Virus record (IMG/VR): IMGVR_UViG_2537561688_000008
Origin: a virus
Taxonomy: Duplodnaviria > Heunggongvirae > Uroviricota > Caudoviricetes
DNA length: 30,766 nt
Strand: one strand, 5' to 3'
Shown here: in pieces, positions 556 through 22,743 of the stretch
Layout: the number at the start of each line of letters is the position of its first letter
Position numbering within the stretch: the stretch's first letter is position 1
Notes under the pieces: generated by a model
Told to the model about the DNA's origin: nothing
Seen by the model: the letters and a program-made list of their open reading frames with translations, nothing else
Databases searched by the model: none
Made by a program: the position numbers and the translations under genes

Positions 556-804
556 GGCGCTTTGATTATTTCTGTGTTTGACATAGAATAGCCCCGTTAC
601 CGCTTGGGACATCTACTTTGCATTACTCTTGGTATTAGCTTTGTACAAAGGGTATAAAGGCTGCTATTGGCAACAATAGTGCTGGCATGGAGATTGCCTC
701 ATGTTAAAGCTAGTGAATGTACGCCAGTACAACCGCTACCGCTTTGGGCGTTGGGAGACGGTGCGTAAGCACCGTCGTTCTTACCCAAAACGATAATATG
801 CGGC

Positions 805-3021
805 CTAAGCGGTAACGTTCTCCTCTTCTAGTTCGTCCATCATTTTTAAATAATGCATTTCGTCACCAGTAGCTGAAAATATTGTTCTCAATTGTTTTAG
901 GTATTTATCTGGGTCTATGTCGCCCATATCAGTAATATTTACCGCATCAGAGTGAGAACCTCTGTTAATGTATCTGTAGAATGCTTTGAAATCACTGTTG
1001 CTATCGTCGCGTGCCAACTTTGTTAATTCATCTTGTAGAGCATCTGTTCTATGAACAAATGCAAAATAATATTCTAGTATGTTTCTCATAATATTAGGTA
1101 TTATGATTTTGTTTGCTTTGCCATCTTTTGCATCTTTTAATATTTGCCACAAAGATTGATATTCATTCTGTATGCTGTTTTTTTGTATTTCAGTAATTAT
1201 ACTAAAATCATTTTTCGTTACTCTACCTAGATAATAGTTTTTCTTAAATAGTTTGTCTTCTCTGCTTTTAGGAGATAGCTTAATAAGTTCATGAAAGAAA
1301 TAAAGATTGTGAGTAAGGATTAATACCTTCTTTGTTAATTCATTTTTTATAATGTGGTGATGAATAATTGATGCGATGTCGTAGACATAGTTTTGCGATA
1401 GACTAGATATTGGATCGTCAATAACAATAAAAATATCCCTGCTATCGGTATCATTTTTATCGGTTTTACCTTTACAGCACTCTAAAAAATAAAGAAACGT
1501 TATTAGTGTTTTTTCACCTTCGCTAAGAGATCTATAAACATTTTGGTTTTTTGTATGCCCTGGTCGAGATATAATGTACATATCTTTTCTTTCTGCATGT
1601 TTTTCAATACAAAAACCAGAGATCCCTAGATTTTTTAAATGGGTGTTTATTGAGTCTATCGTAGAATCAATGTTAGATATTTTATCTCGCAATGCTTTTA
1701 TTGTGAGATTATTTTCTTTTCCTTGTTGCTCAATATTATTTAATTCATCATGAACTTTCTTTTTGATATCAAAGAATTTTTCTTTGTGTTTGGATAAATT
1801 CTCTAAATCATCGCTGCAAAAAGCATGGAGAGCCCCCCAAACTTGTTTTCCGATTTTATTCTCATACTCTTTGAGTTTTTTAACCTTATCATTTATGTCT
1901 CTTATTTTTTTGTTAACAGCGTCTATGCTTTCCTGAACATGATTTTCTAGTTCTTTATCAATTTCTAATGTAACGCATGTTGATGGATTGTTGATCTTAT
2001 CAATAATGTTTATTAAATTTTTTTCTGCAATGTTTTGCAATATTTTAATATTGGAAATAATGATCTCTTTATCTTTCTCATTGATTAGTGCACATGATGA
2101 TATATTGTTTTGTATTTCGTTAAAATGATATATGGTATTTTTCTCATAAACTGACTTTATATCTGAGAGCTGTTTTACTTTCTTTGAATAACTTTCGTCA
2201 AATATTGATTTAAGGGCATTTAAAAATTCGCGACTAATAGTTTTTTCCTGACAAAACGGACATGTAGAACCGTCTAAATAATGTTCTTTACCTTTTTTTA
2301 CCCAGTCAAGATTATGAAGTTTATTAATGGTTTCTGATAAATAGCTATTGCTTGTATCTATTATAGGTGTTGCTAATGTATTTACATCATCAATTGATGG
2401 GGTATATGGGTGTAAAGGAGTTATTAATGCGGTTTCATTGTTTCTATTTTCTAATAGTATAGAGTATTCTTTTGCTATATCATTTAAATTAATAAAGGTG
2501 ATTGGTGAGGATGATTTTATCATCTCAAAAAAAGGTCTTTTATAGCCAACTTTACCTTTCATTAAGATTTTTAGTACAGAGTTTCTGATTGGTTCTGTTT
2601 TTTTCCAGATCGATTCGATGTATTCATTTTCTTTTTTTTCCATTTCTGCTTCTAATTTCAATAACACTCCTTTTTTTTGTCTATATTGCTCTGTAAGTTG
2701 CTGTTTAATTGCTTCTTTTTTAATTAATTGTTTTTCAATATCTGCATTTTCTTTACTTAATGTAAAAACACCTTTTTGTTCCTGTGCATTGTAGAAATTA
2801 TCTTCAATAAATTTAGTGTTGTAAACAAGAGGTTTGTAATTGTCAAGAAGGGTACATTCACACTCGTTATAATCTGTGTGTGTAGAGTCGTAGAAATAAT
2901 TTGAAATGGTAGATTTGCCACAACCATTTTGGCCGTATAGTATGTTTACTCTTTTTTCAAGATTCAGTATTGTGAAGGCGTCTTTCTTATAACTGGTAAC
3001 ATTTTTTAATCTAAGTTCCAT
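805..3021 (-). CDS. ABC-type ATPase with coiled-coil insert and C-terminal putative nuclease domain; RloC/PrrC-like candidate anti-phage protein (cargo island 1)
   Basis: Intact 738-aa ORF. Walker A GQNGCGKST near the N-terminus; ABC-signature-like LSEGEK, Walker B-like IFIVIDDP and H-loop-like LILTHN about 480 aa later; K/E-rich heptad-like stretches in between; CPFC motif mid-insert; C-terminal R-x3-E (RNILE) and R-x6-H (RYINRGSH). Visibly AT-rich compared with the flanking phage genes. GAGG lies 7 nt upstream of the ATG on the minus strand. Confidence 0.6.
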   Translation of the reverse strand: MELRLKNVTSYKKDAFTILNLEKRVNILYGQNGCGKSTISNYFYDSTHTDYNECECTLLDNYKPLVYNTKFIEDNFYNAQEQKGVFTLSKENADIEKQLIKKEAIKQQLTEQYRQKKGVLLKLEAEMEKKENEYIESIWKKTEPIRNSVLKILMKGKVGYKRPFFEMIKSSSPITFINLNDIAKEYSILLENRNNETALITPLHPYTPSIDDVNTLATPIIDTSNSYLSETINKLHNLDWVKKGKEHYLDGSTCPFCQEKTISREFLNALKSIFDESYSKKVKQLSDIKSVYEKNTIYHFNEIQNNISSCALINEKDKEIIISNIKILQNIAEKNLINIIDKINNPSTCVTLEIDKELENHVQESIDAVNKKIRDINDKVKKLKEYENKIGKQVWGALHAFCSDDLENLSKHKEKFFDIKKKVHDELNNIEQQGKENNLTIKALRDKISNIDSTIDSINTHLKNLGISGFCIEKHAERKDMYIISRPGHTKNQNVYRSLSEGEKTLITFLYFLECCKGKTDKNDTDSRDIFIVIDDPISSLSQNYVYDIASIIHHHIIKNELTKKVLILTHNLYFFHELIKLSPKSREDKLFKKNYYLGRVTKNDFSIITEIQKNSIQNEYQSLWQILKDAKDGKANKIIIPNIMRNILEYYFAFVHRTDALQDELTKLARDDSNSDFKAFYRYINRGSHSDAVNITDMGDIDPDKYLKQLRTIFSATGDEMHYLKMMDELEEENVTA

Positions 3022-3336
3022 TTTTATGCCTCATACGATAAAGCTTTTATTGTATGTAAAAAAGCAGCTTAATATAGCCACTTAGTGGTAAAGATCTACC
3101 TTAAGACTTTGATATGTGCAAGAGGCATATAACGTAAGTGTTCGTTGAGCCAAATGTGTTTACGCTATGACGAGTTGGTCGTTTTTTGACAATCCTGTAG
3201 GAGCTATAGATAGGCGTATATTAAGTGCGTGTTTTTGCATGTGTCAGATACTATTCTTTTTGTCAGTTTCGGTCAGTGCTGATGTGATTTCAGTTTCATC
3301 ATGCAACTGCATTAAAACCGCCCCATGAAGCGGGCG

Positions 3337-3524: not shown

Positions 3525-4559
3525 TCAGCCGTTGTCAGGGTCCAGTGAGTAGTTTTTAAAGCGGATGACCTCCTGACCGAGCCAGCCGTTTATCTCGCGG
3601 ATCCTGTCCTGTAACGGGATAAGTTCATTGCGGACAAAGACCTTTGCCACTTTCTCAATATCACCCAGCGACCCGACGTTCTCCGGCTTGCCACCCATCA
3701 ACTGAAAGGGGATGCGGTGCGCGTCCAGCAGGTCAGCGGCGCTGGCTTTTTTGATATTAAAAAAATCGTCCTTCGTCGCCACTTCACTGAGGGGGATAAT
3801 TTTAATGCCGTCGGCTTTCCCCTGTGGGGCATAGAGAAACAGGTTTTTAAAGTTGTTGCGGCCTTTCGACTTGACCATGTTTTCGCGAAGCATTTCGATA
3901 TCGTTGCGGTCCTGCACGGCATCGGTGACGTACATGATGTATCCGGCATGTGCGCCGTTTTCGTAATACTTGCGGCGGAACAGCGTGGCCGACTCATTCA
4001 GCCAGGCAGAGTTAAGGGCGCTGAGATATTCCGGCAGACCGTACAGCTCCTGATTAATATCCGGCTCCAGCAGGTGAAACACGGAGCCGGGCGCGAAAGG
4101 TGTCGGCTCGTTGAAGGACGGCACCCACCAGTAAACATCCTCTTCCACGCCACGGCGGGTATATTTTGCCGGTGAGGTTTCCAGTCTGATGACCTTACCG
4201 GTGGTGCTGTATCGCTTTTCCAGAAACGCATTACCGAACACCAGAAAGTCCAGCACAAAGCGGCTGAAATTCTGCTGTGAAAGCCACGGATGCGGGATAA
4301 ATGTCGAGGCCAGAATATTGCGTTTAACGTAAATCGGTGAGCTGTGATGCACGGCAGCACGCAGGCTTTTTGCCAGACCGGTAAAGCTGACCGGTGGCTC
4401 ATACCATCTGCCGTTACTGATGCACTCGACGTAATCCAGAATGTCACGGCGGTCGAGTACCGGCACCGGCTCACCAAAGGTGAATGCCTCCATTTTCGGG
4501 GCGCTGGCGGTCATTGTTTTTGCCGCAGGTTGCGGTGTTTTCCCTTTTTTCTTGCTCAT
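3525..4559 (-). CDS. Q: portal protein (P2 gpQ-like)
   Basis: 344-aa ORF starting MSKKKGKTPQPAAKTMTAS, same length as P2 gpQ; divergent from O and adjacent to P as in P2. Confidence 0.9.
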   Translation of the reverse strand: MSKKKGKTPQPAAKTMTASAPKMEAFTFGEPVPVLDRRDILDYVECISNGRWYEPPVSFTGLAKSLRAAVHHSSPIYVKRNILASTFIPHPWLSQQNFSRFVLDFLVFGNAFLEKRYSTTGKVIRLETSPAKYTRRGVEEDVYWWVPSFNEPTPFAPGSVFHLLEPDINQELYGLPEYLSALNSAWLNESATLFRRKYYENGAHAGYIMYVTDAVQDRNDIEMLRENMVKSKGRNNFKNLFLYAPQGKADGIKIIPLSEVATKDDFFNIKKASAADLLDAHRIPFQLMGGKPENVGSLGDIEKVAKVFVRNELIPLQDRIREINGWLGQEVIRFKNYSLDPDNG

Positions 4560-6331
4560 CAGTAAAACTCCAGAATGGTGGATGTCAGCGGGGTGCTGAT
4601 ACCGGCGGTGAGTGGCTCATTTAACAGGGCGTGCATGGTTGCCCAGGCGAGGTCGGCGTGGCTGGCTTCCTCGCTGCGGCTGGCCTCATAGGTGGCGCTG
4701 CGTCCGCTGCTGGTTATGGTCTTGCGGATAGCCATAAACGAGCTGGTGATGTCGGTGGCGCTGACGTCATATTCCAGACAGCCACGGCGGATGACGTCTT
4801 TTGCTTTGAGCACCATTGCGGTTTTCATTTCCGGCGTGTAGCGGATGTCGCGCGCGGCGGGATAGAACGAGCGCACGAGCTGGAACACGCCGACACCGAG
4901 GCCGGTGGCATCAATACCGATGTATTCGACGTTGTATTTTTCGGTGAGTTTGCGGATGGATTCCGCCTGAGTGGCAAAGTCCATGCCTTTCCACTGGTGA
5001 CGCTCAAGTATTCTGAATTTGCCACCGGCCACCACCGGCGGTGCCAGTACCACGCATCCGGCGCTGTCGCCACGGTGTGACGGGTCGTAACCAATCCATA
5101 CCGGACGTGAGCCGAACGGATTGGCGGCAAACGGCGCATAGTCTTCCCATTCTTCCAGCGTGTCGACCATGCAGCGTTGCAGCTCCTCAAACGGGAACAC
5201 CGATGCCTTGTCGTCAACAAATTCACACATGAACAGGTTTTTAAAATCGTCGGCGCTGTTTTCGCGTTTGAGCTGCTCAATGTCGAACAGCGTGCAGCCA
5301 CCTTTCAGGGCGTCCTCAATGGTGACAATCTGCCGCCACTGGCCGTCCGCACAGAGAAGACCACCGGCAAGGGCGTTATGACTGACGTCGATTTCCACAC
5401 GTTCGGCGGCGCTGGCGCGTCCCCGGTTGAACAGTTCACCCGACCAGAACGGGTAGGCGTCGTGCGCCAGCGTGGACGGGGTGGAGAAATAGGTCGAGCG
5501 CAGGTGACTCTGTGAGGCCATACCTGATGCCACCTTACGCAGTACCTGAAAATTCGGGATCCAGAAAATCTCATCGACGTACAGGTCGCCGTTATGGCTC
5601 TGTGCGGTGTTGGAGTTGGTGCCGAGAAAAATCAGTTTTGCGCCGTTATTGCCCAGGACAATCGGGTCACCGGTCAGGTCAACGTCAACCAGCCGGGCAA
5701 AGGCGATGATGTATTCACGGAACACATACGCCTGCGTTTTACTGGCCGACAGAAAAATCTGGTTATGACCGGTTTTCAGGGCGCGCAGCAGCGCCTCGCG
5801 GGAAAAATAAAACGTCGCGCCAATCTGGCGGGATTTCAGGATATCGCGGATGCGGTGCTCAAGCCCGGCGCGATACCAGCGCAACTGATATTCGAAAGAC
5901 TGCTCAAAGAAAATCTGCTCCAGCTTTTCGATGGCCTCGTCACTGAAAAAATTCTTTTTCGGTTTGCGACGCCCGCCTTTGTTGCGGTTAGCAACGTTCG
6001 GATTAAGGTCTGCCTCGTTGCCGGTCTGACTGTAACGGTTGACCCGTGCCAGTCGTTCAATCTGGCGTCCGAGCAGGTCAATTTCCTTGAAGTCACCGCC
6101 GGTTTTCTGCGGTTTGATGATGAGCTGGGTCAGCCGCGCTTCCAGACTCATTTCGACACGGCTGATGGGAGCAACGCTGTCCCAGCCGTCGCGCTGCTTC
6201 CAGCTCTGCACCGTCGGGCGCTTCATCTGCAACATGGCGGCAATCTGCGGCACGGAAAATCCCTGCCAGTACAGCAGCGCCGCCTGACGACGCGGGTCGT
6301 GTAAAAGAGTGGTGTCTGTGGTGATGGTCAT
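4559..6331 (-). CDS. P: terminase large (ATPase) subunit (P2 gpP-like)
   Basis: Track ORF is 600 aa; start placed at the internal Met (MTITTDTTLL) with GAGG 5 nt upstream, giving 590 aa. Walker-type terminase ATPase adjacent to Q. Confidence 0.88.
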   Translation of the reverse strand: MTITTDTTLLHDPRRQAALLYWQGFSVPQIAAMLQMKRPTVQSWKQRDGWDSVAPISRVEMSLEARLTQLIIKPQKTGGDFKEIDLLGRQIERLARVNRYSQTGNEADLNPNVANRNKGGRRKPKKNFFSDEAIEKLEQIFFEQSFEYQLRWYRAGLEHRIRDILKSRQIGATFYFSREALLRALKTGHNQIFLSASKTQAYVFREYIIAFARLVDVDLTGDPIVLGNNGAKLIFLGTNSNTAQSHNGDLYVDEIFWIPNFQVLRKVASGMASQSHLRSTYFSTPSTLAHDAYPFWSGELFNRGRASAAERVEIDVSHNALAGGLLCADGQWRQIVTIEDALKGGCTLFDIEQLKRENSADDFKNLFMCEFVDDKASVFPFEELQRCMVDTLEEWEDYAPFAANPFGSRPVWIGYDPSHRGDSAGCVVLAPPVVAGGKFRILERHQWKGMDFATQAESIRKLTEKYNVEYIGIDATGLGVGVFQLVRSFYPAARDIRYTPEMKTAMVLKAKDVIRRGCLEYDVSATDITSSFMAIRKTITSSGRSATYEASRSEEASHADLAWATMHALLNEPLTAGISTPLTSTILEFY

Positions 6332-8486: not shown

Positions 8487-9227
8487 ATGACGAGTCCCGC
8501 ACAGCGTCACATGATGCGGGTCTCGGCAGCGATGACCGCGCAGCGGGAAGCCGCCCCGCTGCGACATGCAACTGTCTATGAGCAGATGCTGGTCAAGCTG
8601 GCCGCAGACCAGCGCACACTGAAAGCGATTTATTCAAAAGAGCTGAAGGCCGCGAAAAAACGCGAACTGCTGCCGTTCTGGTTGCCGTGGGTGAACGGCG
8701 TGCTGGAGCAGGGCAAAGGTGCACAGGATGACATTCTGATGACGGTCATGCTGTGGCGTCTGGATACCGGCGATATTGCCGGTGCGCTGGAGATTGCCCG
8801 TTATGCCCTGAAGTACGGTCTGACCATGCCGGGGAAACACCGCCGCACCCCGCCGTACATGTTCACCGAGGAGGTGGCGCTGCGGCCATGCGGCTCACGC
8901 TGCCGGTGAATCGTGGATCCCCGCCTGCTGACGGACACCCTTGAACTGACTGCCACGGCAGACATGCCTGATGAAGTGCGCGCAAAGCTGCACAAAATCA
9001 CCGGTCTGTTTCTGCGTGACACTGGTGATGCCGCAGGTGCGCTGGCGCACCTGCAACGTGCGACACAGCTCGACTGTCAGGCAGGCGTCAAAAAAGAGAT
9101 TGAACGACTGGAGCGGGAGCTGAAACCGAAGCCGGAGCCGCAACCCAAAGCGGCCACCCGTGCCACGCGTAAGACCCGGAGTGCGACACCGGCAAAACGT
9201 GGACGCCCGAAAAAGAAAACCAGTTAA
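8487..9227 (+). pseudogene. M: terminase small subunit (P2 gpM-like) interrupted by an in-frame stop
   Basis: Two ORFs in the same frame (8487-8909 and 8913-9227) separated by TGA; residues just before the stop do not read like the flanking conserved sequence, suggesting compensating single-base indels. Confidence 0.65.
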
Positions 9228-17477: not shown

Positions 17478-18005
17478 ATGCAGCATTTGATAAATATAAC
17501 GGTGGGTAATCCAAAAACGGTTGAACAATATCAATTGACAAAGGACTTTGATGTTGTCTGGTTTTTTTCAGAAGATGGTAAGAACTGGTACGAAGAACAA
17601 AAGTATTTTGCTGATGACACGATAAAAATAGCGTACGACAAAGATAATATTATCCGCTATGTGGAAAAGGATGTGACAGCTATCAGACCAGATGGATTAA
17701 GTGTGGTTGAAGTGGCGGATATTACTGCTAACCGACGGGCGGACATTTCAGGGAACTGGATGTTTAAGGACGGCAAAGTGATTAAACGCATTTATACGGC
17801 AGATGAATTGCAGCAGCAGGCAGAAAACCGGAAAGCCAGACTTCTTGCAGATGCTGAATCCGTGATTTTGCCACTGGAGCGCGCTGTCAGGCTGAACATG
17901 GCAACAGATGAGGAGCGTAGCCGACTGGAAGCATGGGAACGCTACAGTGTTCTGGTCAGCCGTGTGGATCCTGCAAATCCTGAATGGCCGGAAATGCCGC
18001 AATAA
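17478..18005 (+). CDS. G: tail fiber assembly chaperone (P2 gpG-like)
   Basis: 175-aa ORF directly after H, as in P2. Confidence 0.85.
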
Positions 18006-18480
18006 GTTGTATAAGCTCTGGTGTGAGATTACATATCTATGGCACAGAGTAAAGCCTAATCTGACAGTCCGCTCTGTGCCAAGAGCGGACGTTACTACTA
18101 CTCGACCTAAAGTAAAGCAATTGTACTCATTAAATAGTGGTAATTGGGTCTGGTGCTTAATCGAACGAAATCTCATGTTAGGCGAAAAAAACGTCTGAAA
18201 AATCGATTAACACATACACCTGTGTACTATGGCCGTTATTCAATTTAAAAGGAACCATTTCCGATATGATTCACTGTCCATAATGTTTTGATTTATTAAA
18301 AAAGAGCCTTAGAGTGTGAAACCATTACGTTGAGTGGCGAACACCATTAATAAATTCTGCTTATACTTACAGCATATATTATGTTCACGTCATATAACCA
18401 TGGCAAATAAGATATTGCACATCAAGCATGATTATGATAGTGATTACAAAAATGAAGAATCTTAGATAAAGGATTAGTAA

Positions 18481-19416
18481 GTGGTTACATATAATTCAAT
18501 GTTGTTACCCCCCCCTAAATCTTGGGACGAATTTGAGGATATGTGCAAAAGTTCATTCCAACTGCGATGGTCCAATCCTAATCTGAACAGACATGGACGG
18601 TCAGGGCAGCGGCAGGATGGAGTTGATGTATATGGTGATGACTCTCTTGGGCGTTTCGTTGGAATTCAGTGTAAAAATACAGTATCAGGAATCAGTACGG
18701 CGACAATCGATGATGAATTACTCAAGGCTGAAAAATTTCGCCCAAAAATTACGGTTCTTTACATCGCTACGACAGCGCCCAGGGATGTTAGCATTCAGCG
18801 CTATGTAAGAACACTCAATGATGCCAGACAATTAAAAGGCCTGTTTCCTGTCGATGTGGTTTTCTGGGAGGATATTAGCTTTGATTTAAGCAAAGACCCA
18901 GCTGTACTCAAAATGTACTACCCGCAAATGTTCGAACGACACCAACCGACGAGGGAAGAATTTTTGCGCAAGAGAGATATCTCAAATTTGTCGACATTGT
19001 TGAATGTTATTGATTTTCATTCAACAATAGAACATTTGCAGTGGGGCGCAAAATACATTCATTCATTAATTATTGAAGAATACGATAATATTTTGAACAT
19101 TTTAAACTCACCTGTTTTTCAACTGAATGATACAGCTTTAAAGAATGTTACAATTGATTTTGCAACGGCCTGGCGTGATCTAATTATCTTGTTTAGAAAA
19201 GCTCCATATAATTATTCAGCACCAAATGATACTTTTAGTTTTATAAATCCCGGTGACCACTGTCGAAATCAGGAGGAAAGCGATTTATACGACGAAATCA
19301 CGCATAGCATGAGTAATCTCAAAGATAAAATTAGTACTTTTTGTGACTTTATAAATAATCACTACCATGAAATAAACTTAACCGAAACGAGCGCGCAAGC
19401 CAGGAAATATTATTAA
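18481..19416 (+). CDS. Hypothetical protein with N-terminal Mrr-like restriction endonuclease (PD-(D/E)xK, D...QxK) motif and a C-terminal domain of unknown function (cargo island 2)
   Basis: Intact 311-aa ORF with a GTG start at 18481 and AAAGGA 7 nt upstream (alternative ATG at 18499). N-terminal segment ...WDEFEDMCKSS...GQRQDGVDVYGDDSLGRFVGIQCKN... fits the Mrr catalytic pattern (acidic, DGxD, then hydrophobic-QCK). AT-rich; lies between G and FI. Confidence 0.7.
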   Translation: MVTYNSMLLPPPKSWDEFEDMCKSSFQLRWSNPNLNRHGRSGQRQDGVDVYGDDSLGRFVGIQCKNTVSGISTATIDDELLKAEKFRPKITVLYIATTAPRDVSIQRYVRTLNDARQLKGLFPVDVVFWEDISFDLSKDPAVLKMYYPQMFERHQPTREEFLRKRDISNLSTLLNVIDFHSTIEHLQWGAKYIHSLIIEEYDNILNILNSPVFQLNDTALKNVTIDFATAWRDLIILFRKAPYNYSAPNDTFSFINPGDHCRNQEESDLYDEITHSMSNLKDKISTFCDFINNHYHEINLTETSAQARKYY

Positions 19417-19693
19417 TACTTTTTTCTTAAGGGCTGCACTCATGGCCCTTAACACCGTTAGACTGTCATATTTTGCAATCGATACGCAGTTAGGTACTTT
19501 CTTGAAGTCCGTTCCTCGCTCATAGCTGACATTCAGCTCAATTAACTCGTCCACTTCGCTCCAACAGAAGGCGTAGCTAATCATACTGTGTATTAAAGAA
19601 AGGAGAAACGATCATGTTGAGTACAAAAAACACGAAAGACCATGATAAGGAAAATATGCGTAGAGTGACTTAGTTTATTGATTTAAATAATAT

Positions 19694-19870
19694 TTATGGG
19701 GGTAAGTGCTTTGAATAAAAAAACAAAAATTGAGAAGATTTAGCTAGTGCCAAAATAATTTGGACACCGCCCGTCATCAGACCCGCTACTACACTTATCA
19801 CCCCAGCCCAAAAAGTTTCAATGAAACAAGATACATATAGTAGTACTACATGGCGGAATAATTTACTCAT
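19694..19870 (-). CDS. Small hydrophobic (probable membrane) protein, 58 aa
   Basis: Minus-strand ATG at 19870 preceded by TAAGGAG with a 6-nt spacer. Product MSKLFRHVVLLYVSCFIETFWAGVISVVAGLMTGGVQIILALAKSSQFLFFYSKHLPP has a clear transmembrane-like segment. The ORF could extend upstream to 19999 (101 aa), but that start has no RBS. Confidence 0.45.
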   Translation of the reverse strand: MSKLFRHVVLLYVSCFIETFWAGVISVVAGLMTGGVQIILALAKSSQFLFFYSKHLPP

Positions 19871-20200
19871 AGGCTTCTCCTTACTGACGTAATCGTTAAG
19901 TAACACGTTGAGGTAACGGATAAATGCGACTATTGGGAGAGCTGTGATGAGAATTGTAGGCATAGGAATCGAACCTATGGATGCACTAGCTAAATTCACT
20001 CTTCACGAATTATACAGCATTGTAGTGAGTTTGTAAATACACGCCCCAAAAGTCAATCAGTCCGCTCCATGAATGTTGTGTCAGTACTACTAAAGTTAAA
20101 CATGCTAAAATAGGTTCCCAATATTCGTGGGTACAATCACTATCTGTGTAACTGGCGGAAGCGCTGGCATAACGACGATGCCTATTCGGGGGGCTTTAAT

Positions 20201-21067
20201 ATGGTCCGTTTTAACTTACTAGAAAATGCGTTGGATTCAGTGGAAACCGGGCTGGACTACTTTAACAAAGCGCTAGAAGGGCATGATCGACGTGACTACA
20301 AACAGTGCCTGCTTAACCTCTTTCAGGCCGCTGAGCTATTGTTGAAGGCCGTAGTTTCGCGCAATGGGTCTGGAGCGATTTTTAATCCAGCATCGCTTCA
20401 AGAAAAATGTGTGGATCCGGCGCATCCAACCGAGTCAGAATTACACCAGTGTAAATCTGTCAACGTCAACCAGCTTTGTAAGCTGTTAAAGACATATTAC
20501 CCAGCCGAATTTTCTGAATCTGCATTACAAATGATGAAAACGGTGGGTCAGTTGCGTAATAACCTTCAGCATTTTGCCCTTGAGGTTCGTCCGCAAGAAC
20601 TGGCAATGCAACTGAGTGAACTGTACCAACAAATTTTTCGTCCCGCATTCGTCATAATTCAGTCAGATGAGACCGAAAATTCATGGAACTCTGATTTACG
20701 TCAAGACATCATCGCTCTTGAGCAACAATTCCTTGATATAACTGTTAACCAGGAATACACCCTTGCACTTTGTCCCGTTTGTGAGAGTTTTTCACATTTT
20801 ATCCTTTACCAAAGTGAAAGCTTTCCGGCACGGACTCACTGTATCTGTTGTGGTTTCAGCCTGAATAATCTGCAAACTTGGGATTTTCAGGAATGTCCTG
20901 AATGTAGTGTCCCATCCGTAATTTATTTACCGGAACAAAGGGTCGGTGTCTGTCTCTGGTATAAATGTGAATACAGCAAGATGGATGGTTTTGTTCCTAT
21001 GGAGCCTTGTGAATGTGGTGCATTCCGGATGGAAGGTCATTGCAGTAACTGCGATCTTGAGGAATAG
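20201..21067 (+). CDS. Hypothetical protein with N-terminal HEPN-like helical domain (Rx4H motif) and C-terminal cysteine-rich (multi-CxxC) zinc-ribbon-like region (cargo island 2)
   Basis: Intact 288-aa ORF. Helical N-terminal part contains LRNNLQHF (R-x4-H). The C-terminal ~110 aa carry paired cysteines (CPVC, CICC, CPEC, C-x-C, CSNC). AT-rich. Confidence 0.65.
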   Translation: MVRFNLLENALDSVETGLDYFNKALEGHDRRDYKQCLLNLFQAAELLLKAVVSRNGSGAIFNPASLQEKCVDPAHPTESELHQCKSVNVNQLCKLLKTYYPAEFSESALQMMKTVGQLRNNLQHFALEVRPQELAMQLSELYQQIFRPAFVIIQSDETENSWNSDLRQDIIALEQQFLDITVNQEYTLALCPVCESFSHFILYQSESFPARTHCICCGFSLNNLQTWDFQECPECSVPSVIYLPEQRVGVCLWYKCEYSKMDGFVPMEPCECGAFRMEGHCSNCDLEE

Positions 21068-21430
21068 TAAAATCGTCCGATGAGAATGTACAGCAGCCTG
21101 GTCGATGATTTCTTGATGAATCGCTGAATTATCCGGTATTACTTGACAACTAAATCGCACATTTCTGTTTCTGGCAATTTGAAAGGTTTACTCTATGCCC
21201 CAGAATTCAGCACATACATAAAAACACCATTTCAGAACGCGTCTTGATCCAAAGAACGACTGTATGATAGATAGGCGTCGTCGTGAGGACAGGAATGATC
21301 TACCCCCCGTTATTCATACAGAATGCTGTTAGTAATGTCCGCAGATCGCTCAAAGCAGACTGTCAGATTTGATAGCGTTTGGGCTATGTAAGTAGCCAGT
21401 TGGAGAATGAGTGAGTGCAAATCAGGACTG

Positions 21431-21460
21431 GCGGGCGAATTGCCCGCATTTTCTTTATCT
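21431..21460 (+). terminator. Rho-independent terminator between cargo island 2 and the FI operon
   Basis: GCGGGC-gaatt-GCCCGC stem-loop followed by attttctttatct (T-rich). Confidence 0.5.
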
Positions 21461-21552
21461 GTTGTTTCATCCACTGACCAGCCAGGTCAAATAGCGTCTC
21501 ATGCACTGCCCAACAGAAAATAGTTGCACCCATTAACCACGGAGTTAAACGG

Positions 21553-22743
21553 ATGAGTGACTATCATCACGGCGTGCAGGTGCTGGAGATTAACGACGGC
21601 ACCCGCGTCATTTCCACTGTATCCACTGCCATTGTCGGCATGGTCTGCACGGCCAGCGATGCGGATGCGGAAACCTTCCCCCTCAATAAACCTGTGCTGA
21701 TTACCAATGTGCAGAGCGCAATTGCAAAGGCCGGTAAAAAAGGCACGCTGGCGGCATCGTTGCAGGCCATCGCTGACCAGTCAAAACCGGTCACCGTTGT
21801 CGTGCGCGTGGAAGACGGCACCGGCGACGACGAAGAAACGAAACTTGCGCAGACCGTTTCCAATATCATCGGCACCACCGACGAAAACGGTCAGTACACC
21901 GGACTGAAAGCCCTGCTGGCGGCGGAGTCAGTAACCGGTGTTAAACCGCGTATTCTCGGCGTGCCGGGACTGGACACCAAAGAGGTGGCTGTTGCACTGG
22001 CATCAGTCTGTCAGAAGCTGCGCGCTTTCGGGTATATCAGCGCATGGGGCTGTAAAACCATTTCCGAGGTGAAAGCCTACCGCCAGAATTTCAGCCAGCG
22101 TGAGCTGATGGTCATCTGGCCGGATTTCCTCGCATGGGATACGGTCAGCAGCACCACCGCCACCGCGTATGCCACCGCCCGTGCGCTGGGGCTGCGTGCT
22201 AAAATCGACCAGGAGCAGGGCTGGCATAAAACGTTGTCCAACGTCGGGGTAAATGGTGTTACCGGCATCAGCGCATCTGTATTCTGGGATTTGCAGGAGT
22301 TCGGCACCGATGCTGACCTGCTTAACGAGTCAGGCGTCACTACGCTGATTCGCCGCGACGGTTTCCGCTTCTGGGGTAACCGTACCTGCTCTGATGACCC
22401 GCTGTTCCTCTTTGAAAACTATACCCGCACCGCGCAGGTGCTGGCCGACACGATGGCTGAGGCGCACATGTGGGCGGTGGACAAGCCCATCACCGCAACG
22501 CTGATTCGCGACATCGTTGACGGCATCAATGCCAAATTCGTGAGCTGAAAACAAACGGCTATATCGTGGATGCGACCTGCTGGTTCAGCGAAGAATCCAA
22601 CGATGCGGAAACCCTCAAGGCCGGAAAACTGTATATCGACTACGACTATACACCGGTGCCTCCTCTTGAAAACCTGACCCTGCGCCAGCGTATTACCGAT
22701 AAATACCTGGCAAATCTGGTCACTTCGGTTAACAGCAATTAAG
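21553..22743 (+). pseudogene. FI: tail sheath protein (P2 gpFI-like) with C-terminal frameshift
   Basis: 331-aa ORF (21553-22548) is followed without a gap by a second frame encoding ...ELKTNGYIVDATCWFSEESNDAETLKAGKLYIDYDYTPVPP... up to 22743; the combined span matches a ~396-aa sheath protein. Confidence 0.7.

Follow-up and report, generated by a model that had tools for sequence, protein, structure and literature searches.

A mosaic island at the Z/fun site of a P2-like prophage carries a candidate Mrr-type nuclease and a partner-less relative of the HEC-08 family

The window analysed here is a 30,766-nucleotide (nt) stretch of a P2-like prophage (IMG/VR record IMGVR_UViG_2537561688_000008), and all coordinates are window positions. 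Between gene G and the tail sheath gene FI lies an AT-rich island with three intact open reading frames (ORFs): g1 (311 amino acids (aa), plus strand), g2 (101 aa, minus strand) and g3 (288 aa, plus strand). We find that these genes do not form one system; g1 and g3 are instead predicted to be nucleases of two separate kinds, one of DNA and one of RNA. The island and its flanks are laid out as follows.

17478–18005, plus strand: gene G, tail-fibre assembly protein, the left conserved flank (Pfam Caudo_TAP, E = 7.9e-35; RefSeq annotation of the identical locus)
18058–18097, no strand: left arm of the Z-region inverted repeat, a cassette edge (40 nt, 80% complementary to 21330–21369)
~18098 to ~19505, plus strand: module A, the segment around g1
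18481–19416, plus strand: g1, candidate stand-alone Mrr/MspJI-type PD-(D/E)xK nuclease, 311 aa, assigned by fold and motif
19550–20037, minus strand: module B, the g2 unit of ~490 bp with a small hydrophobic protein, which recurs as a unit in Dickeya
20201–21067, plus strand: g3 (module C), predicted DUF3644-type HEPN protein with three zinc ribbons, 288 aa, assigned by fold, motif and homology
21330–21369, no strand: right arm of the Z-region inverted repeat, a cassette edge (pairs with 18058–18097; P2 homology restarts at 21338)
21553–22742, plus strand: gene FI, tail sheath, the right conserved flank (Pfam sheath domains, Phage_sheath_1 E = 6e-34)

The GC content is 0.33–0.45 across 18001–21500 and 0.54–0.60 in both flanks, which bears out an earlier note on this DNA that described ~3.5 kb of AT-rich sequence with three intact genes between G and FI. 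Homology to reference P2 ends at 18094 and restarts at 21338. The variable cassette in between (18095–21337, ~3.24 kb) substitutes for a 2.07-kb P2 segment with fun(Z), and record AJ512683 (P2-EC58 Z region) annotates a ‘left/right inverted repeat’ to which the repeat at the cassette edges aligns. The cassette thus occupies the variable Z/fun site of a P2-like prophage, with the known Z-region inverted repeats at its ends, and the comparison with P2, the repeats and the literature all agree with the earlier placement of the interval at this defence site. Z/fun is the second known P2 defence hotspot, variable and enriched in defence genes (Vassallo 2022, PMC9519451; iLund4u preprint); the paper ‘Global genomic diversity of P2-like viruses’ contains nothing on hotspots.

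P2 Fun(Z), a lysogenic-conversion protein that blocks T5 (P2 record annotation), occupies the same locus between the same inverted repeats, but it is a 528-aa P-loop-type protein encoded on the opposite strand and is similar to nothing in the window. A tblastn search with Fun(Z) against the whole window gave no match below E = 3, and thus no Fun(Z) homologue. The three genes, which had been judged unrelated to phage structure, are unrelated to Fun(Z) as well, and the alternative named beforehand, that they are homologues of that known protein, falls away. Rfam and tRNA scans of the island returned no match, and no record among isolated phage genomes has the island or any g3 homologue.

The island is a mosaic of at least three independently acquired, independently mobile units. 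Of 5426 complete E. coli genomes, 13 have g1 and 28 have g2 with g3. Fifteen of those 28 lack g1 and have other cargo in its position before g2 and g3, for example DUF2971, DUF4236 or S1 peptidase genes. The common g2–g3 segment always starts at 19505–19508 and ends at 21351–21373. Its two genes are divergent, and across E. coli, Mixta, Phytobacter and Serratia the block (~1.85 kb) keeps 94–99% nucleotide identity. No g3 homologue at 76% identity or less is accompanied by g2. Conversely, the exact stretch 19550–20037 recurs at 83% identity in Dickeya chrysanthemi (locus L030) without g3, where it is divergent from an adjoining DUF6037 gene. Among the g1- and g3-homologue loci that we examined, g1 and g3 co-occur nowhere beyond this island.

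This distribution bears directly on the view of the earlier note, in which the island was one module. A single integrated system of g1, g2 and g3 would account for their adjacency within one pair of inverted repeats and for their co-inheritance in 13 complete E. coli genomes and on six IMG/VR P2-like contigs, one of which has a different tail fibre. However, g1 and g3 were never found together elsewhere, other genes can fill the g1 position, a chimeric ORF (below) spans the boundary between modules A and B, and the genes lie on different strands. The distribution thus largely refutes a three-gene system, which we consider extremely improbable. The genes do not always travel together in E. coli genomes or homologue loci, and their co-occurrence does not extend to divergent homologues; the fallback offered in the earlier note, separate single-gene systems, is what the distribution favours.

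The first of the mobile units carries g1. Its AlphaFold model (predicted local distance difference test (pLDDT) 90.7) has the alpha-beta-beta-beta-alpha-beta core of restriction endonucleases, in which E19 sits on helix 1, D49 directly ahead of strand 2 and Q63-C-K65 within strand 3. Residues ~1–150 make up this nuclease domain, and a family-specific helical C-terminal domain follows. In an alignment of 34 homologues the N-terminal ~150 residues are kept and E19, D49 and Q63-C-K65 are invariant. The C-terminal half is replaced by other domains in distant relatives, and is therefore most likely a sensing or regulatory part. Viral structure matches are to proteins named ‘restriction endonuclease’ or Mrr, and cover the N-terminal domain only. 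Substitutions in g1 indicate purifying selection (ratio of non-synonymous to synonymous substitution rates (dN/dS) 0.37, from few substitutions).

Sequence searches reach less far than the fold. Against Pfam, NCBIfam and PADLOC g1 had no significant match, and the Pfam models Mrr_cat and Mrr_cat_2 gave none at E values up to 1; among its 34 homologues, 7 match Mrr_cat weakly (best E = 4e-4) and 6 match Mrr_cat_2. The description of g1 as an Mrr-like nuclease with a D/QxK motif was thus correct at the level of fold and motif, and the motif is conserved, although g1 itself does not reach the Pfam model. Sequence searches of solved structures with g1 or its profile returned nothing useful, PADLOC-DB v2 and the DefensePredictor supplementary sequences hold no counterpart, and the only g1-like match among isolated phage genomes (31% identity) is on a Salmonella contig. 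The validated protein WP_097419291 (DS-40) shares the length of g1, 311 aa, but its sequence is unrelated.

We compared g1 with type IV and Mrr-family nucleases (Mrr, MspJI and AspBHI) and with the Mrr-type effector domains of Type ISP enzymes and Avs4. Unlike these, g1 has an N-terminal nuclease followed by a helical domain without a recognizable DNA-binding, SRA, NTPase or STAND module; no reader of DNA or modified bases (SRA, winged helix or similar) could be recognized joined to the nuclease. It also differs in its lack of a Pfam Mrr_cat match, and no partner gene is present. The homologues found outside the island all lack g3: in Serratia the gene stands alone beside Kiwa KwaA/KwaB, in Vibrio it lies within an AlpA/RadC/DUF2787 island, and after umuDC it occurs both at the end of a lambdoid prophage and on contigs that resemble plasmids. 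Judged by its sequence, g1 is the only truly uncharacterised candidate of the island, and a candidate DNA nuclease.

The recurrence downstream of umuDC forms a pattern of its own. Homologues with 53–84% identity to g1 (loci L018, L039, L040 and L041) lie repeatedly just downstream of umuD–umuC. In the IMG/VR contigs L039–L041 a 288-aa gene sits between umuDC and the g1 homologue, and a ParA-like gene is found further downstream. Plasmids or phage-plasmids are what these three contigs resemble, whereas locus L018 is the lambdoid prophage end.

The third unit encodes g3. Its N-terminal domain has the HEPN fold, and the closest solved folds include HEPN toxins of toxin–antitoxin (TA) systems. Across an alignment of 21 homologues R119-N-N-L-Q-H124 is invariant, as are 12 cysteines arranged as three CxxC...CxxC sets, so that the HEPN-like zinc-ribbon protein with an Rx4H motif described earlier is upheld. 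In sequence and profile searches of solved structures the second ribbon resembled the TFIIB ribbon (E = 9e-4), and nothing useful was found beyond it. Among partner-less copies in four genera g3 has a dN/dS of 0.13–0.31 (few substitutions). No minimal nucleotidyltransferase (MNT) antitoxin gene adjoins g3 in the window, as one would in a HEPN–MNT type II/VII TA system, and the partners found in its relatives (below) are ribbon–helix–helix (RHH)-like, winged helix–turn–helix-like or other, not MNT. In the Mixta locus L003 a nucleotidyltransferase-like gene occurs ~1 kb upstream of the g3 homologue, with other ORFs between.

Profile comparisons place g3 near two known families. Its best PADLOC match is PDC-S64 (E = 4e-21, 73 bits), which covers only profile positions 1–129 of 339; P0196, a true PDC-S64 member, scores 467 bits over positions 2–333, a full-length match that g3 does not have. 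Against the PADLOC HEC-08 model g3 scores 24.1 bits (E = 4.2e-6), with residues 14–285 aligned to profile positions 20–300 of 358. A search of 1.84 billion representatives with a g3 profile retrieved 643 relatives, many full length, including proteins that match the HEC-08, PDC-S64 and DUF3644 models and have R-N-x3-H and 10 ribbon cysteines in common with g3. An hhalign comparison of the g3 family with 11 HEC-08-, PDC-S64- or DUF3644-matching proteins gave 99.8% probability (E = 4e-29) over 263 columns, and g3 is ~22% identical to HEC-08-like proteins. These matches, with the common motif and cysteines, therefore indicate that g3 is a divergent, full-length subfamily of the DUF3644 HEPN–zinc-ribbon family, a known and validated kind. 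The word ‘undescribed’ in the earlier note consequently does not apply to g3, which belongs to the same full-length architecture family as PDC-S64 and the validated HEC-08.

HEC-08 consists of a DUF3644 HEPN domain with several zinc-finger-like domains (Payne et al., bioRxiv 10.1101/2024.01.29.577857), and its single-gene anti-phage defence is lost in an Rx4-6H histidine mutant (bioRxiv 10.1101/2024.01.29.577857). Like it, g3 joins an N-terminal DUF3644-type HEPN domain with Rx4-6H to several C-terminal zinc ribbons or fingers, and both structures match the HEPN toxin SO_3166. The two differ in setting, as HEC-08 was found embedded in Hma systems and g3 in a prophage hotspot, and in the upstream partner that most of the g3 subfamily has and that is not reported for HEC-08. 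PDC-S64 is a PADLOC phage defence candidate; its member P0196 has R-N-x3-H and 10 zinc-ribbon cysteines in common with g3, whose match to the model is confined to the N-terminal third. The Ishtar anti-conjugation genes, compared by description only, also combine in one protein a HEPN domain at the N terminus (DUF3644 or DUF4145) with a C-terminal domain rich in beta structure; they are patchily distributed and occur in mobile elements (bioRxiv 10.64898/2026.07.06.735840). They are from Acinetobacter, act on plasmid RP4 and have C-terminal beta-sheets with three helices rather than zinc ribbons.

We found no paper on PDC-S64, nor any in a literature search by the RefSeq accessions of the island proteins. 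The PADLOC models, which presumably include one for PD-T7-4, gave no PD-T7-4 match to g3 reaching E = 1. PD-T7-4 and DS-38 are single-gene E. coli defences that combine a HEPN domain with a zinc finger, the same domain pair as g3 (Vassallo 2022; DefensePredictor). No g1, g2 or g3 peptide is among the DefensePredictor supplementary sequences.

Most g3 relatives have a companion that the island copy lacks. Relatives at 62–76% identity, and one at 52%, have a same-strand gene upstream that mostly abuts g3; another 52% relative, and one of two at 36%, have no clear partner at the locus. The main partner type, X, is a protein of 333–367 aa in Enterobacter-like, Superficieibacter and Dickeya genomes and in NCBI, ENA and Logan contigs, encoded 1–2 nt from g3. 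Its N terminus is weakly RHH-like, matching DUF6364 in 6 of 6 members (best E = 6e-4) and HicB and Arc faintly, and a profile of X matched no solved structure. RHH-like X stands directly before the g3 homologue in the genomic or metagenomic loci L004, L005, L006, L020 and L021. Homologues at ~66% identity to g3 are carried by 262 plasmids, most of which come from E. coli and Salmonella and 253 of which are conjugative. WP_001586225 is one such plasmid homologue, with WP_000952231 as its partner X. A single plasmid locus was examined (E. coli pMS15047A, L053, 3911–5870): X is directly before the g3 homologue, and the pair adjoins an S-4TM effector gene and a HEC-04/OLD-like AAA ATPase. PADLOC contains no two-gene system of the X–g3 kind.

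A single conserved partner family for g3 could not be defined. The type of partner at loci L007 and L023 (319 and 196 aa) is unrelated to RHH-like X, and other lineages also have unrelated partners. In a metagenome-assembled genome of Sphingobacteriaceae (L010) a gene at 5254–5976, which precedes a g3 homologue of 36% identity, resembles the C-terminal region of PADLOC type I methyltransferase/specificity subunits and DarG (E = 4e-31), and a second copy (8627–9100) lies 2.6 kb downstream.

In the window only a trace of X is left, just ahead of g3.

20152–20190, plus strand: remnant of the last ~13 codons of X (tblastn, X367 residues 353–365, 9 of 13 identical, with an in-frame stop)

Consistent with this, DNA homology to X-bearing loci starts ~50 nt before the g3 ATG. 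The alignments indicate that X was deleted from the island and that g3 was kept afterwards under purifying selection, a conclusion drawn from the low dN/dS of the partner-less copies. g3 therefore appears to be tolerated, and is probably functional, without X, and its retention after the loss of X argues against a constitutively lethal orphan toxin.

That argument matters for a reading of these genes as addiction elements, in which X–g3 would be a type II-like TA pair that stabilizes plasmids, with RHH-like X as antitoxin and the HEPN protein as toxin, the prophage g3 an orphan toxin and g2 a type I-toxin-like protein. The RHH-like N terminus of X, its 1–2-nt spacing from g3, the abundance of the pair on conjugative plasmids and the HEPN toxins among the closest folds to g3 all point this way, as do the small size and hydrophobicity of g2, its strong promoter-like site and the ~130-nt leader that it would have if the 58-aa form were used. 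Yet X-less g3 is intact and under purifying selection in four genera, as an orphan with constitutive toxicity would hardly be. In addition, X greatly exceeds a simple antitoxin in size, HEC-08 provides defence from one gene of the same architecture, and no Rfam family matches in the g2 unit. We regard the addiction reading as unlikely, and TA and defence roles are not mutually exclusive.

The second unit, with g2, and the short features around it are as follows.

19378–19584, minus strand: 68-aa ORF, a chimera of the A/B junction and not a gene; its two halves track two segments
19694–19999, minus strand: g2, 101-aa form with a GTG start (ORF call)
19694–19870, minus strand: g2, 58-aa form (RefSeq), preceded by an AGGAGAA Shine–Dalgarno sequence read from the DNA
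20037–20009, minus strand: promoter-like site of g2 (11 of 12 consensus positions matched)

The long form of g2 has hydropathy peaks at residues 17–26 and 53–80, in keeping with the small membrane protein of the earlier note, and a core of 58–62 aa is 79–89% identical in Serratia, Phytobacter and Dickeya. Pfam, NCBIfam and PADLOC gave no significant match to g2, and an Rfam scan of the unit found no family. The dN/dS of g2 (0.43–0.86, from few substitutions) amounts to weak constraint, and its substitutions show no third-position bias. The region varies less than the flanking intergenic DNA (4.7–6.8 versus 12.9–15.3 differences per 100 nt). From its sequence and distribution, module B seems to be a small membrane-protein unit that recombines on its own.

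A two-gene system of g2 and g3, in which the membrane protein replaces X, for example as a membrane effector or anchor, would explain why the two travel as one 1.85-kb segment in four genera and why the g2 region is better kept than its surroundings. The near-identity of that segment points instead to recent transfer, so that the co-occurrences are not independent. Moreover, the g2 unit exists without g3 in Dickeya, the more distant g3 homologues all lack g2, the gene is on the opposite strand, and neither its dN/dS nor its substitution pattern indicates strong coding constraint. Such a pair is doubtful in our view.

We ruled out the 68-aa ORF as a fourth gene despite its own PHROG (phrog_8904, matched end to end at E = 5e-51), as its halves belong to different segments. 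The N-terminal ~30 aa accompany the g2–g3 cassette (L002, L029 and L031) and the C-terminal ~40 aa accompany the 3′ flank of g1 (L018 and L019). phrog_8904 thus appears to have been built on a junction artefact. Also inside the g2 unit, and convergent with g2, is a 19-codon plus-strand ORF (19614–19673, MLSTKNTKDHDKENMRRVT) that follows a strong AGGAGA Shine–Dalgarno sequence. A promoter-like site at 19730–19759 (plus strand) would read antisense to g2.

On balance, we think it probable that g1 and g3 each work alone, as effectors that shield the lysogen from incoming phages or other mobile DNA. The anti-phage or anti-plasmid role is inferred from what is known of the families and from context, as are RNA and DNA as the substrates and a sensing function for the zinc ribbons and the g1 C-terminal domain. 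For g3, we propose by analogy with HEC-08 that infection switches on the HEPN active site; the activated HEPN domain would then cut RNA, with the zinc ribbons binding either the trigger or the RNA target. For g1, DNA would be cut once the C-terminal domain is released or engaged.

Several points weigh against this assignment. With the HEC-08 model g3 reaches no more than 24 bits, and its match to PDC-S64 is limited to the N-terminal third; its behaviour may differ from that of HEC-08. Many of its relatives keep the upstream partner, and a g3 without one could be crippled, or a silent toxin. g1 has no significant match in Pfam, NCBIfam or PADLOC, and its defence context comes from a small number of loci. 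H-NS can silence AT-rich cargo in P2-like prophages (preprint), few substitutions underlie the dN/dS estimates, and the functions of the three proteins are predictions. Finally, FI is frameshifted in this prophage copy, and the element may be decaying.

The FI lesion splits the gene into ORFs of 331 and 58 aa through the loss of one T near 22537, in an AAATTT run, relative to the intact 396-aa gene of strain 120899. Either the mutation is genuine and inactivating, or it is an error from sequencing a homopolymer. The island might be decaying, non-functional cargo of a defective prophage, a view with which the frameshift, the reduction of X to a stop-containing remnant and the TGA that interrupts the upstream, ATG-started version of the long g2 ORF (compared with P0159) would agree. 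However, g1 and g3 are full length, with all catalytic and metal-binding residues intact; both have dN/dS below 0.4; and the identical island occurs in prophages with intact FI. The lesion, moreover, affects one base of a homopolymer run and may be a sequencing error. We consider decay very improbable.

A more ambitious possibility, to which we give less weight than to the two separate effectors, is that g1 represents a new single-gene nuclease immunity family with an as-yet-unseen exchangeable helical sensor and, separately, that the X–g3 operon of conjugative IncF-type plasmids, numbering in the hundreds, is a new two-gene HEPN system. The g1 family would then spread on prophages, plasmids and defence islands while matching no known system. 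RHH-like X would gate the RNase, and the prophage copy may show an RNase re-wired to work without it.

The Z/fun site of P2 has been proven to yield new anti-phage genes, which makes each unassigned occupant an inexpensive and testable candidate. g1 offers an unassigned nuclease family whose catalytic residues are plain targets for mutation and whose C-terminal domain is modular. g3 offers a subfamily of HEC-08-type RNases in which relatives have a large RHH-like partner and a prophage derivative is naturally partner-less; comparing X-bearing with X-less g3 is a route to the role of the partner as sensor, brake or antitoxin. The island is also a worked example against reading hotspot cargo as one operon, with its mobile units, a junction chimera that has its own PHROG and a gene remnant. 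Current views are not overturned: nuclease effectors are expected in prophage hotspots, g3 is a partner-less variant of a HEC-08-type family and the island is typical hotspot cargo.

Downstream of the cassette, one feature had been taken to close the island.

21431–21447, plus strand: terminator-like hairpin (7-bp stem with 6 GC pairs, then a T-rich tail; consensus match only)

A hairpin is present before FI, where the earlier note placed a terminator, but terminator-like matches in the island are no commoner than in shuffles, and this one belongs to P2 sequence that is conserved beyond the cassette edge, shortly before the FI promoter region; in the P2 annotation the pF activator site and the transcription start follow close behind it. 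The right Z-region inverted repeat is found in other hosts. In Mixta theicola (L003, 7714–7750) a copy of it (window 21335–21371) follows the g2–g3 cassette, beyond an inserted insertion sequence, and in Phytobacter and Serratia the cassette homology stops within it. The right repeat may travel with the cargo, or may be a recombination site, in hosts other than E. coli as well.

At the other end of the window, a second AT-rich stretch (~700–3300, GC 0.27–0.30) lies between a fragment of replication gene A (19–555) and the portal gene (3525–4559). This is the old/tin site, the other P2 hotspot, and it holds a single 738-aa protein (805–3021, minus strand) with an N-terminal ABC/AAA ATPase motif. 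The protein is a near-perfect full-length match to the PADLOC candidate PDC-S06 (E = 5e-254), with C-terminal similarity to the anticodon nuclease PrrC (E = 1e-12).

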